NCBI GenBank assembly: GCA_035285865.1
Contig: JAYKHS010000026.1
Coordinates: forward strand, 77,766 to 141,765
DNA: 64,000 nucleotides
Source: Candidatus Sericytochromatia bacterium
Lineage (GTDB): Bacteria > Cyanobacteriota > Sericytochromatia > S15B-MN24 > VGJW01
Reading direction: 5' to 3'
Numbering within the stretch: the first letter of the stretch is position 1; each line of letters opens with the position of its first letter. The position numbers were made by a program. Shown here piece after piece: positions 33,001-45,000 of this stretch.

Positions 33001-36000
33001 AGCCTACGGGGCTCCGCCCGCCGAGGCCGCGGCCCTGACGCGGGTGCTCGGGCAATTGGACCCGCGTTCGGTGCCTCCCGAACTCGCGGCGGCTGTTGCC
33101 GAGACGCTTGGGTTCGTCTTCGCACTGGATCAGCAGGCTGAAGGAGCGGGCACGATGGAGGGACGTCGATGATCCGGGGCATCTACACCGCAGCATCCGC
33201 GATGCAGCTCAACACGCACATGGTCGACGTGATGGCCGACAACCTCGCCAACTCGGCGACCACCGGCTACAAGCGCAAGGAAGCCATCGTGCGTTCCTTC
33301 GGCGATGTGCTGGTGGACCTGACGGGGGATGCCGAGCCGGGGCGGGTCCAGCTTGGCGCCAAGATTGACGAGGTGGCCCGGGACGGCAAGGCGGGCAGCC
33401 TCCGGAGGACGGACGGGCTGCTTGACGTGGCCGTCGAGACCGACGATCACCAGATGCTGGCGCAGCGCGCCGACGGAACCCGGCTCTTCACGCGCAACGG
33501 CCAGCTCAGGCTGGATGCCGAGCGTTACCTCGTGACCAGTACGGGCGACCGCATCCTTGACGCCGGACTTGCTCCCATCGAGATGCCCCAGGACTTGAAT
33601 GGCCTGCGCATTGAGGCCGACGGCACGGTGCGCAGCACTGCCGGTGTCGTGGGACGCATCGGCCTGTTCACGCCCTCGGTGGCCCAGATGACGGGTTTCC
33701 CGGTGGCGATCGGTGCCTTGCTGCCGGCCGAAGGCGGCCGCCTGCAGCAGGGCTATCTCGAGTCGTCGAACGTCAATATCGTCACCGAGATGATGGGCCT
33801 CGTCGAGGCCAATCGCCACTTCGGCTTGGGCCAGAAACTCGTCACCGTGCATGACCAGTTGCTGCAGAAGGCCAGCAACGACCTCGGCCGTACCCAGTAG
33901 TCCCCAGTTCCACGGAGGAATGTCGCCATGATGCATTCGATCTGGACCGCTGCCACCGGCATGCAGGCGCAGCAGATGCGCATCGATGCCATCGCCAACA
34001 ATCTGGCGAACGTCAACACGACGTCCTACAAGAAGAGCCAGGTGGACTTCCAGGACCTGCTCTACCAGGCGGTGCAGGCCCCCGGGCAGGAGACCGCCGG
34101 CATGCAAGTGGGGCTTGGCGTGCGGCCGGCTGCAATCACGAAGTATCACGCGCAGGGCAATCTGCAGGTCACGAACAATCCCCTCGACGTCGCCATCGAC
34201 GGGCCGGGCTTCTTCCAGGTGACCACCACGGATTCCCGGGTCGTTGGCGGTCGGGCCTTCACGCGGGACGGATCCTTCAAGATCAATAATCTGGGGCAGC
34301 TCGTGACGTCCACCGGCCTGGTGGTCCAGCCCGAGATCCAGCTGGGCAACGTCACGGACATCCGTATCCGCGAAGACGGCATGGTGTTCGGTCGTCTCGG
34401 GGGCGCCGGGCCTGTCACCCAGATCGAGGGCATCCAGCTGGTGACGTTTCCCAACCCTGCTGGGCTGATGTCCATCGGCAACAACCTCTATATGGAGACG
34501 GCTGCCAGCGGTCCGGCCAACGCCCCTGCGGCGGGTGGCGCAAACGGCAATGGTCGCTTCGTCCAGGGGGCTCTCGAAGCCTCGAACGTCGAACTCGTGA
34601 CCGAGATGGTCATGATGATCGCGACGCAGAAGGCTTACGACACCTCTTCAAAAGCCATCAATGTTTCCGACAAGATGATGGAGTCGACCAACGGCCTCAT
34701 CCGCTAACGGTCGGGAACGTGAGCAACATGCGCGCAGGGGGATTCGCGGGGGTGGCCGTCGCCGCCCTCATGTTGCTGCTCGCTGTCACGCCCGGGGCCG
34801 AGGCTCGGCCGGCGCTCGGTCGCGTGGCTCTGGACACGGTGCGGGCTTCGCTGCAGGCGCAGTACCCGGGGGGCGAGGTCGAGGTCAAACCCCTGCTTCC
34901 CGAGATCTCCACCATGATCCCAAAGGGGGCGGTCGACCCCACGCTGCGCCTCTCGGGTCCCGTTCGCCAACTGGGACCGTCCGTGCCCGTTTCTCTGGAT
35001 GTCCTGGACCGGAACGGCCGCAAGATCGCCTCCGTGGTGCCTCGATTCTCCGTCGAGGTTTGGCGCAACCTGCCCGTGCTCGCTCGGGCGATGCCACGCG
35101 GCACGGCCCTCGCCCCCGCCGACATCGAGGTCCGGCGGCTCGCCCAGAGTCGCGTGACCGGCTCGGTTTTGCTTGACGTGGGGTCTTTGATCGGGGCCAG
35201 ACTGGTCCGCAGCCTCGCCAGCGGCAGCGTGCTCGTGACCCACATGCTTGATCTGCCTCCCGTGGTCCGCCAAGGGGCAACCGTGCGCGTGCACGTGCGC
35301 AGCGGGGGCCTCGAGGTGCTCGGACAGGGGACTGCACTACAGGACGGGCGCGTCGGCCAGGTCATCCGGATGGTCAATCCGACCTCGCGCAAGGACTTCC
35401 TTGCCAGGGTCCGTGACGCCGAAGTTGTCGAATTGGATCTCGGGGAGGAACTCGAATGATGCGGAGCCTCGCGTGCCTCGCGGTGACCGCGGTGTTGGTC
35501 GTCGCACCCACCGATGCGGCGCGTGCCGACTCACTCTTCCCCGACAGCAACTATGGCGGGCTGATAAGCGATCAGGTCGGGGATCGGCGCATGGCCATCG
35601 GCCCGGGCTCCCTCGTCACGGTGGTCGTGACGGAGAACATCCAGGCCGAGCAGGCGGCGACGACCCGTACCATCAAGGATTCCAAGGTCTCTTCGTCGTG
35701 GGACTTCGGGTCGATCTTCGGCATCGGCGCCAATAACCAGGGCTCTTTCAACAATCAGGTCGAGATGTCCGGAAAGGCCGACTTCAACGGCGACGGCGTG
35801 ACGCGTCGGGGTGGGACGATCTCGATGCTTGTGGCGGCTCAGATCACGGAAATCCTTCCTGATGGCTCGATGCGCATCAAGGGTTCCAAGGATCTGGTGG
35901 TCAACGACGAGAAGTCGACGGTGGTGATCTCGGGCGTGGTCCGCCCGTGGGACATCGGCATCGACAACCGGATTCCCAGCGAGCGGATTGCCGGCTTCCA

Positions 36001-42000: not shown

Positions 42001-45000
42001 CGTGAACTTCATCGTCATCACCGAAGGTGCGAAACGGGTCGCCGAGGTTGCTGCCCGGTTCACCTTGGACGCCATGCCTGGCAAGCAGATGTCCATCGAT
42101 GCCGACCTGGCCGCAGGCCTCATCGATGCGGAGGGTGCCAAGAAGCGCCGCACGGACCTCGAGCGCGAAGCCAACTTCTTCGGCGCAATGGACGGTGCCA
42201 ACAAGTTTGTTCGGGGCGATGCGATCGCCGCCATCATCTTGATCTTCGTCAACATCATCGGCGGCATCCTGATTGGGATCCTGCAGAAGGACATGGAGGT
42301 CGAACAGGCCCTCAAGGTCTATTCGCTGCTGACAATCGGCGACGGCTTGGTCGGCCTGATACCCGGCCTGTTGATTTCGATCTCGGCCGGTTTCGTGACC
42401 ACGCGTGCGGCCTCGGACTTCAATCTCGCGACGGACCTCAAGAACCAGCTCTTCACCAGCCCGAAAGTCCTTGGCATCGTCGGCTTCGTCATCATCATGA
42501 TGGGCTTCATTCCGGGCTTCCCGACGGTTCTGATGCTGTTGCTCGGGCTTGGTATCCTCTTCGCGGCCTTCGTTGCCTACAGAGGGGGACTGCTCGGGGC
42601 TGCACCGCCCTCCCTGGCGGGAGATGCGCCACCGATGGGTGACGAATTCGACGACTACCAGCCGGAGTCGGACGAGGACCTCAAGAATCCCGAGAACGTC
42701 ATGAAGATGCTCGGCGTGCCGCCGCTGACGCTCGAACTGGGCCTCGATCTGGTACCTCTGGTGGACCCCGGCCTCGGTGGCGAGCTGATGGATCGCGTCG
42801 TGCCCATGCGCGTGGCCATCGCGTTGGACCTCGGTTTCGTCATGCCGGGTATCCAATTCAAGGACAACCTCAATCTGCGGCCGAATGCCTACCAGATCCT
42901 GGTCAAGGGAAACACCGTCGCCACGGGCGAGCTGCTGGTCGGCTACATGCTGGCCATCCAGCTCAACACGACGGACCTGTCTCAGGAGTTGGTCGGCTTC
43001 CCGACGAGCGATCCGGCGGGCAACCGTCCTGCTGTCTGGGTGGCCGGTGCCGAGGCGCAACGAGCCGCACAGCTGGGCTACCTGATCCAGGATCCGACCA
43101 ACGTGCTGACGGCACACCTTGAGGAAGTGGTCCGGGCACATGCTCACGAGATCCTGAGCCGCGAGGAGGTCAAGATGATGCTCAACCGGCTGCAGGAGCG
43201 TGCCCCCATCACGGTCAAGGAGCTGGTGCCCGAAGTGCTTGCGCTGGGCGAGGTACAGCGCGTCCTGCAATCGCTCCTGCGCGAGCGGGTGAGCATCCGT
43301 GACCTCGCCACCATCGCCGAGAAGCTGGCCGACTTCGGCAAGATGACCAAGGATGTCTTCACGCTCACCGAACTGGTGCGGCAACAGCTTTCCCGGAACA
43401 TCTGCGCTTCTGTGGCCGACGATGAGGGTCGCATCGACGTGATCACGCTTGATCCAGCGGTCGAGGGCGCCATCCAGCAGGCCATCCAGCCTGGACCTCA
43501 GGGACCGACGCTGGCGCTGAACCCCCAGATCGCCCAGCTGATGCTTGCGCGGCTGGCTGGCGTGGTGAACGAGGCCCTCGCCAAGGGCCAGAACCCGGCA
43601 GTGCTCGTCAGCCCGATTGTGCGTCCCCACGTCAAGAACCTGGTGGATCGCAACTTTCCGAACCTTTCGGTTCTGTCCTACTCCGAGATCAACGCCAAGT
43701 TCAAGGTCCAGGCGATCGGGGCCGTCTCGATTGCCGTCGGGGCTGCTTGATGCGTGGTGCCGGCCGTCCGGTTGCACGGGCGCGGTCGTGGATCCGGCTG
43801 CTGGTGCTCTGGATGGTCGTGCTCTGCTTCGGAGCGGCCTCGACGTTATTGGAGGACGAGCGCGTGGGCGGTCAGGAGGCGCACCACCTTCTCCTGGAGG
43901 ACGTGTTGGCCTGCGATGCCGTGTCGCTGGGCCGCGGTCTCGCCGGCATCCCGGAGTTCCGTGCGCGCGTGCCTGCGTTACGGGGCGAGTCCGGCCAGTT
44001 CGCTTCACGTCGGATGGTTGACCGTAGTCGGACGACCTCCGGAGGCGTACGGGAGGGCTGTGCGATGGCCCCGCCAACATCACGCGGGCCACCGTCTACG
44101 GGGCGGGGCGGACCTTTCCTGATTCGCTGGCGCGATCGTTGGGGGTGGGTCGGACCGTAAGGCCCAGGTCGACCCTGCGAGGTCGTCCACGACCCCACGA
44201 ATGCTGGAGTTCCGACCTAGTCCGTTTCATCACCGCCAGCAGCAGCTGTTGCCGCCGATGCCGGTCTCGGCCCGCGGCTCGCCTATTGCATGAATCCTGT
44301 CGACCGCCGGTATGAGGATCTCCGGACGGGTCATCTCGGCCTCAATATCCTCCGCGACTTGATGGCCGGTCTGATCGTGGCCATGGTGGCCATTTCGCTG
44401 GCCATGGGCTTTGCGATGGCCAGCGGATTGGCCCGAGCAGGGCATCGTGGGCGGGGCCGTGGCCGGCGCCATAGGCGCTCTGTTCGGGGGCTCCAAGTAC
44501 CAGGTCTACGGACCGACGGCGGCCTTCATCCCGATCATCGCGGGCATCATGGCCAAGCACGGCTATTCGATGCTGGTGCTGGCGTCGATTCTTGCAGGCT
44601 TGGTCCTGATGGTCATGGGGGTCGCTCGCCTCGGGCGCGTGGTGGCGCGCGTGTCCCACTCCATTGTGGTGGGATTCACCGTGGGCATCGCCCTGTCTAA
44701 GGTCGGTGAGGTCCTGGGCCTGCACGCCAAGTTTGGCTATGCCATGGCAGACAAGAACCGCGGCATCGTCGCACACGGTCACGAGACCAACGTCTATGCC
44801 GTCATCATCGCGCTGCTGACCTTCGCGATCAGCTAGACGCTCATCAAGGTTTCCGTCCTCATTCCGGCGCCGCTGATTGCCGTCGGTGCCGGTACGATGC
44901 TCGCGCAGGGACTGTAGGCCGACAAGGGGCTCGTGACGGTTCGCGAGAAGTACGGTTCCATTCCGACGGACTTCTGGATCTTCACGCCTCCGCAGGGCAT

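Follow-up and report, generated by a model that had tools for sequence, protein, structure and literature searches.

The set-2 operon in the window

The window, by which we mean the whole stretch of 64,000 nucleotides of a Candidatus Sericytochromatia genome that was analysed, contains an operon of rod, ring and export genes (Table 1) belonging to the second of two divergent flagellar gene sets, designated set 1 and set 2. Comparisons were made across a sample of 47 genomes of the class Sericytochromatia in seven families (f1–f7). The first-pass annotation had placed the genes from flgF to flhA correctly, and its Pfam families, domain limits of FliF included, stand, as does its description of the product of 37222..37650 (g02102) as a rod-binding protein of FlgJ type. 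Both ends of the stretch have to be moved, however. The operon does not open at 33169 but upstream, with a FliK-like gene and a gene for a small protein resembling the C-terminus of FlhB, whilst the ORF with which the stretch had been closed at 44160 (43747–44160) shows no conservation in the loci of the seven relatives compared and is probably not a gene.

Table 1. Features of the set-2 rod operon
Feature	Position	Strand	Evidence
FliK-like ruler/switch protein, 392 aa, first gene of operon	31767..32945	+	Flg_hook 298-351, E 5e-6, below cut-off
Small FlhB-C-terminal-like protein, 59 aa	32993..33172	+	Identity inferred from position
FlgF, set 2	33169..33900	+	Pfam; 34% identity to set-1 FlgF
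FlgG, set 2	33928..34707	+	TIGR02488 above cut-off; set-2 FlgG clade support 99
FlgA, P-ring chaperone	34719..35459	+	Pfam; paralogue not found in studied genome
FlgH, L ring	35456..36082	+	Pfam; paralogue not found in studied genome
FlgI, P ring	36095..37222	+	Pfam; single flgI in 44/47 class genomes
FlgJ, rod-cap domain only	37222..37650	+	Rod-binding E 1.5e-5
FliA-derived sigma factor without region 3	37647..38369	+	Sigma70_r2 and r4 only (Pfam)
FlgB, set 2	38385..38786	+	TIGR01396 above cut-off
FlgC, set 2	38921..39319	+	Pfam
FliE, set 2	39323..39700	+	Pfam
FliF (MS ring) fused to FliG middle domain	39708..41630	+	YscJ_FliF 49-223, FliF_C 264-425, FliG_M 568-636
FliG_M domain of FliF fusion, residues 568-636	41409..41615	+	E 2e-12
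FlhA, set 2, export gate	41645..43750	+	FHIPEP (Pfam)

The FliK-like gene has a counterpart at the equivalent position in families f2–f4 (33–50% identity), and in the f7 loci this place is taken by FliK-domain proteins of 977–1056 aa. A Pfam search with the 59-residue product gave no match; in f4–f7, the gene at its position matches FlhB at 40–46%. For the sigma factor, the top NCBIfam model is FliA/WhiG, below cut-off, and its identity between families is 50–57%; it is likely to be a dedicated set-2 regulator. NCBIfam scores of set-2 proteins are higher with flagellar than with Sct models: FlhA, for example, scores 765.7 bits with TIGR01398 (cut-off 772.1) and 632.5 with the SctV model (cut-off 692).

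Division of parts between the two sets

The divergence originally reported between the sets was confirmed, with paralogues sharing 40% (FlhA), 54% (FliI), 51% (FliP), 36% (FlhB), 28% (FliF and FliG), 47% (FlgC) and 42% (FlgG) identity. The description of set 2 as scattered over at least six places was only partly right: it consists of two conserved operons and a few single genes. Allocation of rod, junction and filament genes had been left open and is now largely settled by the gene inventory. Each set has its own FlgB, FlgC, FlgF, FlgG, FlgJ, FlgD, FlgE, FliE and FliK. Set 1 is an ordinary chemotactic flagellum for which separate genes for rod, junction, filament, stator and chemotaxis are present (flgF, flgG, flgJ, flgM, flgN, flgK and flgL among them, at contig C5:60022-65364), but it lacks flgAHI. 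The latter genes are single and lie beside set 2, as had been proposed, with no paralogues found in the genome, so that set 1 probably uses the set-2 rings. Conversely, the genes for junction, cap and chaperones occur once each, beside set 1 (one FlgK and one FlgL, with set 1, one FliD and one FliS). The genome also encodes three MotAB pairs, and its extra flagellins (contigs C16 and C14) cluster with ordinary FliC and not with the f2 flagellin clade discussed below.

Of the parts of a motile flagellum, set 2 encodes separate versions of the export gate (FliOPQR, FlhA and FlhB), ATPase (FliHIJ), MS ring, rod (FliE, FlgBCFG and FlgJ) and hook cap (FlgD). It also has L/P rings, FliK-like rulers and a short FlgE-like subunit, FlgG-sized and without a D2 domain.

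The MS ring and the C ring

The FliG middle domain that had been noted at the end of FliF is present as a tail in 44 of the 47 class genomes. In the alignment, the tail has ERPAT, ERLPT or ERPGT where EHPQ, which we take to be the FliG_M motif, would stand. The tail is a probable C-ring dock. A complex model of the tail with the FliM-like domain scored 0.52 against 0.07 for the best control, a weakly supportive value: the same mark was reached by 116 of the 157 solved pairs and by 2 of the 215 mismatched ones, with 18 of the solved pairs and both mismatches at 0.60 or below. Contact agreement between runs was at least 82% and the partner pLDDT was 85; the model may pass through likeness to solved FliG–FliM. 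The FliN domain of another set-2 C-ring protein is attached to an apparently new membrane domain, for which nothing above Z 4.5 was found among 48,161 chains; against the Atlas, the top match was 0.76 by features, with TM at most 0.43.

The double-length FliG of the first-pass annotation is a real protein, but it is not two FliGs fused: its N-terminal half comprises a signal peptide, a FliF RBM3 domain and a membrane helix, followed by FliG. It is confined to 17 of the 47 genomes, all of them in f1 or f3 (the studied genome among them), and we infer that it belongs with set 2. FliG_C is whole and the R281-equivalent arginine is kept, whilst the GPVR motif has been lost. In one relative (G027), a motB-like gene immediately precedes it. 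Searches for a second FliG_C found none in f2, f4 and f5 and none in the greater part of f7, although an additional FliG of ordinary type is present in genus g24.

Conservation in the class

As first reported, 45 of the 47 genomes match set-2 FlhA, 44 of them at 59–100% identity (three as fragments), and set-1-type FlhA (41–47%) is found in 37. The FliF–FliG(M) fusion, like set-2 FlhA, is present in 44. Both set-2 operons are colinear in loci read from all seven families, set-2 gene trees mirror the family grouping, and comparison of the studied genome with relative G025 indicates purifying selection (synonymous versus amino-acid-changing codons 289/23 for FlhA and 208/10 for FliI). Beyond the class, an FlhA-alignment scan found no set-2 type among the best 80 of 599 FlhA/SctV loci (top identity 46% among the matches listed), which sets no bound on the range of set 2. 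A protein search with the FliF tail gave 13 matches among 418 candidates; the four named ones, query aside, are from Sericytochromatia or 'Cyanobacteria' bins.

Family f6, represented by six metagenome bins that are 74–98% complete, keeps set 2 with no filament, junction or FliG torque-domain genes found. Set-2 FlhA and FliF are found in five of the six and FliI, as a single copy, in all six, together with FlgD (5/5) and FlgI (5/6), whilst set-1-type FlhA, FliF and FliG are found in none. Flagellin_N is absent from all six, among them a 93% complete genome in three contigs and another 98% complete, against its presence in all 41 remaining class genomes; nor was FlgL (0/6) or FlgK_D1 (0/5) detected. 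FliG_C was likewise found in none (0/5 by Pfam, 0/6 by profile), given that the profile has 12 rows and that a very divergent FliG outside f1 and f3 could escape both. These results support the earlier idea of set 2 as a possible secretion device without a role in motility. A MotB-plug gene is nevertheless kept in five of five f6 genomes, four with a motAB pair, so that a motor role is conceivable; f6 MotA has no acid at the place equivalent to the one we take to be E98.

FlgE-like subunits and a flagellin in f2

Matches to the FlgE-like subunit, cross-hits included, number 6–16 per genome in f6, 18 in f5 and 5–10 in f7, against 2–4 in f1–f4. Some of these proteins have large inserts, the largest protein reaching 1944 aa, and the variable inserts look surface-exposed. 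No shared promoter motif was found upstream of 41 FlgE-like genes. In f2, a divergent flagellin follows set-2 flhA in all seven loci read, and in that family a flagellin may thus form the end of the set-2 structure.

Vampirovibrionia and the type III trees

Set-2 genes and the 'type A' genes of Vampirovibrionia form one clade with support of 97, or 99 without injectisome rows (all tree supports are SH-aLRT), which identifies the Vampirovibrionia system as orthologous on phylogenetic grounds. All 170 genomes examined from the largest Vampirovibrionia-like family, whose genomes are reduced, contain FlhA of this system. Five Vampirovibrionia-like genomes had been credited with one full-length FlhA; about 40 of the 170 have two. 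Where only the orthologous system is present, flagellin was found in none of four genomes (two of them single-contig) and FlgI and L/P rings in none of ten. We also observed proteins in which an FlhA C-domain is joined to an HTH.

In trees of five core genes, set 2 joins SctV/R/S/T/N, and set 2 plus injectisome cores are separated from all other sampled flagella with SH-aLRT of 99–100, on sparse sampling and without bootstrap. The Sct clade itself (support 100) does not include set 2, which is its neighbour and scores below the Sct model cut-offs. Rooting the FliI tree on F1 subunits gave no resolved join of set 2 with SctN. An origin of set 2 by duplication of set 1 within the phylum is disfavoured only modestly: for the tree that keeps all Cyanobacteriota copies together, p-AU is 0.037.

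What set 2 may build

Non-photosynthetic relatives of Cyanobacteria keep a filament-less, flagellum-like machine beside or instead of a swimming flagellum, mostly without the torque-receiving part. We think it probable that set 2 is a separate, ancient, non-swimming type III machine that builds a tube of hook protein for attachment or secretion. The FliF tail would replace FliG as the dock of a reduced C ring, made up of a FliM-like protein, FliN and the FliN domain whose attached membrane domain would anchor it in the inner membrane; docked and tethered in this way, the ring would be a fixed sorting platform and not a rotor. Rod subunits would be exported through the P/L rings, after which FlgE-like subunits would polymerise into a tube of a length fixed by FliK-like rulers, and FlgE-like paralogues with variable inserts could decorate or tip it. 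The likeliest use of such a tube would be surface or cell contact, for attachment and/or protein delivery. In f1 and f3, and hence in the studied genome, the set-2 ring may have gained a complete FliG through the later FliF(RBM3–membrane helix)–FliG fusion.

Could set 2 instead be a second motility organelle, as in polar/lateral pairs, with extra MotAB turning a long polyhook in place of a filament or with the junction and filament of set 1 shared? The f6 genomes keep rod, L/P bushing and MotAB, and their very long FliK-like proteins (1607 aa) would give a long hook; FliG_C in the long FliG of f1 and f3, the motB-like gene before it in G027, the flagellin adjoining flhA2 in f2 and the three MotAB pairs of the studied genome point the same way. 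Yet FliG_C is missing from f6 and no second copy was found in f2, f4, f5 and most of f7, the FlgE-like subunit lacks D2, the long FliG lacks GPVR, a membrane-anchored C-ring subunit would hinder rotation, and Vampirovibrionia with the orthologous system only have neither FlgI nor flagellin in the genomes tested. We regard this explanation as unlikely.

An envelope-internal device, serving periplasmic export or as a cell-to-cell or division-linked channel with rod and hook as a short plug, appears similarly improbable. Analogues would be the needle-less T3SS* of Myxococcus and the sporulation channel. Retention of the orthologous system throughout 170 reduced genomes, with L/P rings absent from the ten Vampirovibrionia tested, suggests a housekeeping-like role, and the HTH-fused FlhA C-domain proteins indicate regulatory coupling. 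In Sericytochromatia, however, the L/P rings are encoded inside the operon and are kept where set 1 is absent, and the large variable inserts of the FlgE-like paralogues have the look of exposed surfaces. It is very improbable that set 2 is a copy in decay or an accessory one that lends alternative rod and ring subunits to a single flagellum, or that it is a binning artefact. Single flgAHI genes imply that at least the rings are probably shared, but class-wide presence, conserved order, purifying selection and contamination of 0.83% speak against this explanation, and survival without set 1 in f6 contradicts it.

Our preferred reading, a non-swimming machine that builds a hook-type tube, can be taken one step further, if more tentatively. 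Set 2 and its Vampirovibrionia orthologue might form a third type III branch that survives as the sister group of injectisomes as a whole: a flagellum without filament and torque ring whose conduit is still rod, L/P rings and hook-type subunits, a stage before the Myxococcales-type intermediate. It would have been present with a swimming flagellum in the ancestor of non-photosynthetic Cyanobacteriota, its tube assembled from FlgE-like subunits that are interchangeable and vary in their outer domains. To our knowledge, the step from flagellum to injectisome has been argued from trees, and we know of no machine that lacks filament and rotor but has rod, rings and hook. Set 2 has such a make-up, is class-wide, is matched by an orthologue in Melainabacteria-like genomes from the gut and stands beside injectisomes in the five-core-gene trees. 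The transition would thereby become testable through imaging and reconstitution, and 'partial flagella' in these bacteria could be reinterpreted as a kept machine and not as decay. New parts would include the membrane-tethered C-ring subunit, the FliF–FliG(M) ring and hook-type subunits displaying large domains.

Comparison with known systems

Compared with the bacterial flagellum of Terrabacteria type, the axial, ring and export families of set 2 are all flagellar. It differs in lacking FlgK, FlgL and FliD of its own and, in most families, FliG_N or FliG_C, and in having FliG_M on FliF, a membrane-bound FliN and a short, expanded FlgE. Dual flagella (polar and lateral, or Fla1 and Fla2) likewise involve two complete sets of export and basal-body genes and a separate sigma factor for each. 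In those known to us, genes for filament, junction, FliG and stator accompany both sets, whereas set 2 appears to lack its own. Among the genes of set-2 loci, a Pfam search found no SctC, SctD, lipoprotein SctJ or needle SctF; in their place set 2 has FliF with RBM3, rod and L/P rings.

We found no description of the set-2 system in the literature outside subscription journals, searched by title and start of abstract. The trees of Di Rienzi (2013, PMC3787301) include two ACD20 flhA genes, and in the portions of that text considered the filament-less MEL.A1 set is interpreted as genome reduction and two separate systems are not described. The early-branching Myxococcales system, according to the relevant parts of Abby and Rocha (2012, PMC3459982), lacks FlgBCDEK, FliEG, FlgH and MotAB, and set 2 resembles it in an export core without motility parts and in vertical retention, but retains a rod with L/P rings, a hook cap and hook-like subunits. 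Chlamydiaceae, in the sections of Bergeron (2016, PMC4768692) consulted, have a remnant of a FliF–FliG(M) fusion, FlhA and FliI, in which FliG_M likewise follows FliF and motility is lacking; the FliF there measures about 330 aa and has no RBM3, however, and rod and rings are gone. Three remnant FlhA proteins cluster with two chlamydial flagellar FlhA (support 100) and not with set 2, which rules out a common origin and makes the fusion convergent. Finally, the hook-basal body of Buchnera, suggested to be a secretion system (in a passage of PMC3459982 citing earlier work), likewise combines rod, rings and hook without a filament. That of Buchnera is an endosymbiont's only flagellum in reduced form, whereas set 2 is an old paralogue, with new subunits, beside a working flagellum.

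Composition and setting of set 2

The genome under study is a 2.8-Mb bin (completeness 82.7%, contamination 0.83%) from f1, one of the seven families (f1-f7) in our sample of 47 genomes of the class Sericytochromatia, a class name that follows the first-pass annotation and named relatives of FliF2. The window spans C26:77766-141765 of this bin. It carries the genes of an ordinary chemotactic flagellum (set 1) and a second flagellar-type type III set (set 2), the latter split into two operons with fliHI, flhB and fliJ-fliK elsewhere. Pfam families bear out the window genes from flgF to flhA listed in the first-pass annotation, and re-comparison agrees with its identities between paralogues; the operon start had been placed too late, however, as a FliK-like gene opens the operon, and the last ORF had no match in the loci of seven relatives (Table). 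The second operon runs flgD-flgE-fliM-like-membrane FliN-fliN-fliO-P-Q-R. In the loci read, both operons are colinear across f1-f7, except that f6 and f7 carry flgD/E apart from the rest. Pilin genes sit before the set-2 operon in f3 and f4 also. The gene before fliH2 does not adjoin it in the loci read from other families.

Table. Positions of features (plain numbers, window; C, contigs of the genome under study; L, loci in the analysis)
Feature	Position	Remarks
Two short Flp/TadE-like pilin genes, PilT-like ATPase	10502-12618	presumed, by eye, from motifs
Type IV pilus-type genes	25330-31539	divergent, before set-2 operon; pilin with N-methyl motif, ABC transporter, prepilin peptidase-like, PilM/N/O-like; mostly judged by eye
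FliK-like gene	starts 31767	first of set-2 operon
59-aa gene		after FliK-like gene; FlhB C-terminus-like, from likeness of positional orthologues
flgF to flhA	33169 (flgF), 43750 (flhA)	
Last ORF of first-pass annotation	43747-44160	
Sulfate-permease-like membrane gene	44290-45568	by eye; seemingly broken into two or three frames
Gene before fliH2, first listed as unknown	C5:41104-42771 (L004:6104-7771)	no Pfam or NCBIfam match; by eye, like an LptD/OstA-type outer-membrane protein
Second set-1 locus	C5:59415-68521	transglycosylase, flgF, flgG, flgJ, flgM, flgN, flgK, flgL, fliW, csrA, flhF, flhG
1008-aa flagellin	L018:6055-9081 (C14)	800-aa insert without Pfam family
Two extra MotAB pairs	C28:12515-13960, C28:97749-99437	each MotA without one of two rotor-contact charges
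Long FliP frames	L135:10994-12163, L127:8770-10011, L138:1993-3210	f3-f6
HTH + FlhA cytoplasmic domain proteins	L095:6183-7295, L338:3075-4196, L330:2764-4017, L339:3405-4544	f6 and f7
FlhA-cytoplasmic-domain-only proteins	L329, L331-L337, L255:7569-9041, L257:6534-8009	away from flagellar loci
Stand-alone protein with FliF RBM3 piece	L146:6067-6777	two f1 genomes

Set-2 FlhA is found in 44/47 class genomes (identity 59-100%) and set-1-type FlhA in 37/47; FliF with a FliG_M tail likewise occurs in 44/47, and set-2 FliI keeps at least 65% identity class-wide. Codons with synonymous and with amino-acid changes relative to the genome G025 number 289/23 for FlhA, 208/10 for FliI and 270/137 for the long FliG described below. 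Set-2 trees split f1-f4 from f5-f7 and keep families together, as vertical descent predicts.

Set 1 and the single ring genes

The main set-1 operon, on contig C22, encodes FliFGHIJ, FlgBCDE, FliE, MotAB, FliLMY, FliOPQR, FlhBA, Che proteins and FliA; the remaining set-1 parts are five flagellins, one protein of 1008 aa that resembles flagellin, and single FliD and FliS proteins. Other class genomes have similar long flagellin frames (700-1800 aa), and lone motB-like genes occur in G029 and, ahead of the long fliG, in G027. The locus matching the second set-1 locus in three Vampirovibrionia-like genomes holds flgF, G, A, H, I, J, M, N, K and L, whereas the genome under study and G024 have the same flgF-to-flgL order without flgAHI. 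FlgI is one gene in 44/47 class genomes (in one of them split), never present as two full copies and not found in 3/47; in the loci read it sits in the set-2 operon. Because flgAHI are absent from its locus and the single FlgI belongs to the set-2 operon, we infer that the ring genes of set 1 were lost and that this set either uses those of set 2 or does without.

Set 2 without filament or torque domain

Set 2 has its own conserved parts list and is independent of filament and torque domain, as family f6 illustrates. Set-2 FlhA and FliF are present in 5/6 f6 genomes, FliP in 4/6 and a single FliI in 6/6, with no set-1-type copy of any of these found in the six. Flagellin_N, which also detects FlgL, matched 0/6 f6 genomes against 41/41 others in the class; FlgK_D1 and FliG_C each matched 0/5, and a FliG profile 0/6. 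Two f6 genomes are 93% (three contigs) and 98% complete. FlgD (5/5) and FlgI (5/6) are kept. According to a survey of flagellar loss (10.1101/2024.12.05.626484), rod and hook genes normally disappear along with FliC, so f6 is unusual.

A MotB-plug gene in 5/5 f6 genomes, four times as motAB, counts against a plain non-motor reading. With the torque domain missing from this family, it is unlikely that set 2 is a polyhook or shared-filament motor. The f6 MotA has lysine and threonine at places that we take to be R90 and E98, respectively. The main exception to a filament-less set 2 is f2, where a divergent flagellin directly follows flhA2 in the seven loci read; these flagellins form their own clade (100), separate from FliC and FlgL.

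Relatives of set 2

Among 401 genomes sampled from the phylum (at most two FlhA candidates scored per genome), FlhA is present in 170/170 members of f9, the largest Vampirovibrionia-like family and, judging from its size and number, probably Gastranaerophilales-like, in 5/5 members of f27 and in two more genomes, with none in the other families. About 130 f9 genomes have type A FlhA alone (36-39%); about 40 add type B (41-43%), which resembles set 1 at 48-49% and adjoins fliPQR-flhB. Type A belongs to a fliE-fliF-X-fliH-flhA locus and owns FliM-like and FliO-like proteins, a short FliP, FliQ and FliR; its FliQ, at 162-206 aa, is about double the usual length. FlgI occurs in 7/7 two-type but 0/10 one-type genomes, and flagellin in 0/4 one-type genomes. 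For set 2, whose operon holds flgI, an envelope-internal channel is a doubtful reading. Di Rienzi 2013 (PMC3787301) included two ACD20 flhA genes in trees and explained the MEL.A1 set, which has no filament, by reduction still under way.

Tree reference sequences came from 80 of 599 loci. All tree supports are SH-aLRT values, to be read with many missing phyla, uneven composition, absent roots and possible long-branch attraction in mind. In FlhA trees (FastTree, 74 of 122 rows; PMSF, 46 rows) they were 89/93 for set 1 with type B, 88/89 for set 2 with type A, and 86/93 for the split of injectisome SctV, set 2 and type A from other flagella (88 in a 42-row tree with chlamydial rows). FliPQR (43 rows, without type A) joined set 2 to Sct proteins at 96; FliI, rooted on F1, joined set 2 to type A at 82, with no resolved join to SctN. 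Five genes together (33 rows, 1669 columns) gave 97 for set 2 with type A and 100 (LG+G4) or 99 (PMSF) for these plus injectisomes against the rest, with injectisomes plus set 2 still set apart at 99 without type A and three long rows. In concatenated trees set 1 joins a Chloroflexota flagellum, not type B. A single clade of all Cyanobacteriota copies was modestly rejected (p-AU 0.037).

Unusual components

The FliF2 tail is a FliG_M domain without FliG_N or FliG_C, with ERPAT, ERLPT or ERPGT at the position of EHPQ, the FliM-binding motif of FliG. A complex model of tail and FliM-like protein scored 0.52 against 0.07 for the best control, weakly supporting the pairing. An extra, membrane-anchored FliG_M gene lies between fliF and flhA in f2.

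The FliG on C6 had been described as double-length; a fusion of two FliGs is ruled out: its N half is a FliF RBM3-like domain plus membrane helix. A hydrophobic N-terminus, an RBM-like alpha/beta domain (proline-rich loop in place of the collar) and a helix at 263-289 precede FliG N, M and C. Its profile matches FliF RBM3-TM2 (E 1e-13), and structure matches for its model include FliG (E 3e-9) and the FliF S ring (probability 1.0, E 0.03-0.1). It occurs in 17/47 genomes, exclusively f1 and f3, keeps the R281 equivalent and has lost GPVR. The N half reaches 35-41 bits with the FliF2 of f1/f3, compared with 28 and 7 bits for two FliF1, and the M domain clusters with ordinary FliG, not with FliF2 tails; the protein is probably a later chimera and may be linked to set 2.

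The membrane FliN, found in 17/17 switch operons aligned, combines a hydrophobic helical domain (four segments above a crude hydropathy cut; a structure model was also made) with a SpoA domain that aligns to FliN structures at Z 8.6; 1.84 billion representatives yielded 16 clusters at E 1e-30. The FlgE-like subunit (379 aa) has D0 and D1 with no D2 match, and a tryptophan in its N-terminal helix in 18/20 rows. Profile matches per genome number 2-4 in f1-f4 (in the genome under study, one true gene plus cross-hits), 18 in f5, 6-16 in f6 and 5-10 in f7. The shortest paralogues have about 240 aa and the longest 1944 aa; in the seven scanned, inserts gave no Pfam match above cut-off. FliK-domain proteins of f6/f7 reach 977-1607 aa. 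FliP frames of 346-441 aa at the fliO-fliP place in f3-f6 suggest FliO-FliP fusions.

HTH-FlhA proteins, with an N-terminal HTH_17 matched by Pfam in two, could be regulators made from the export gate's docking domain. Many class genomes and the Vampirovibrionia-like ones have one to five further FlhA-cytoplasmic-domain-only proteins (300-600 aa); the search gave none in the genome under study.

Mode of action and comparison with known systems

We consider it probable that a reduced, fixed C ring would dock on the FliF2 tail, that export would pass through rod and L/P rings, and that FlgE-like subunits would form a tube, its length measured by a ruler, used in contact or secretion.

Set 2 qualifies neither as a motile flagellum nor as an injectisome. 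The Chlamydiaceae also fuse FliG_M to FliF (Bergeron 2016, PMC4768692); judging from the FlhA tree, the two fusions are convergent. In Abby and Rocha 2012 (PMC3459982), a motility-less intermediate precedes Myxococcales systems, which, unlike set 2, are without rod, hook and rings. By analogy, set 2 would work like a flagellar hook-basal body serving as a type III conduit.
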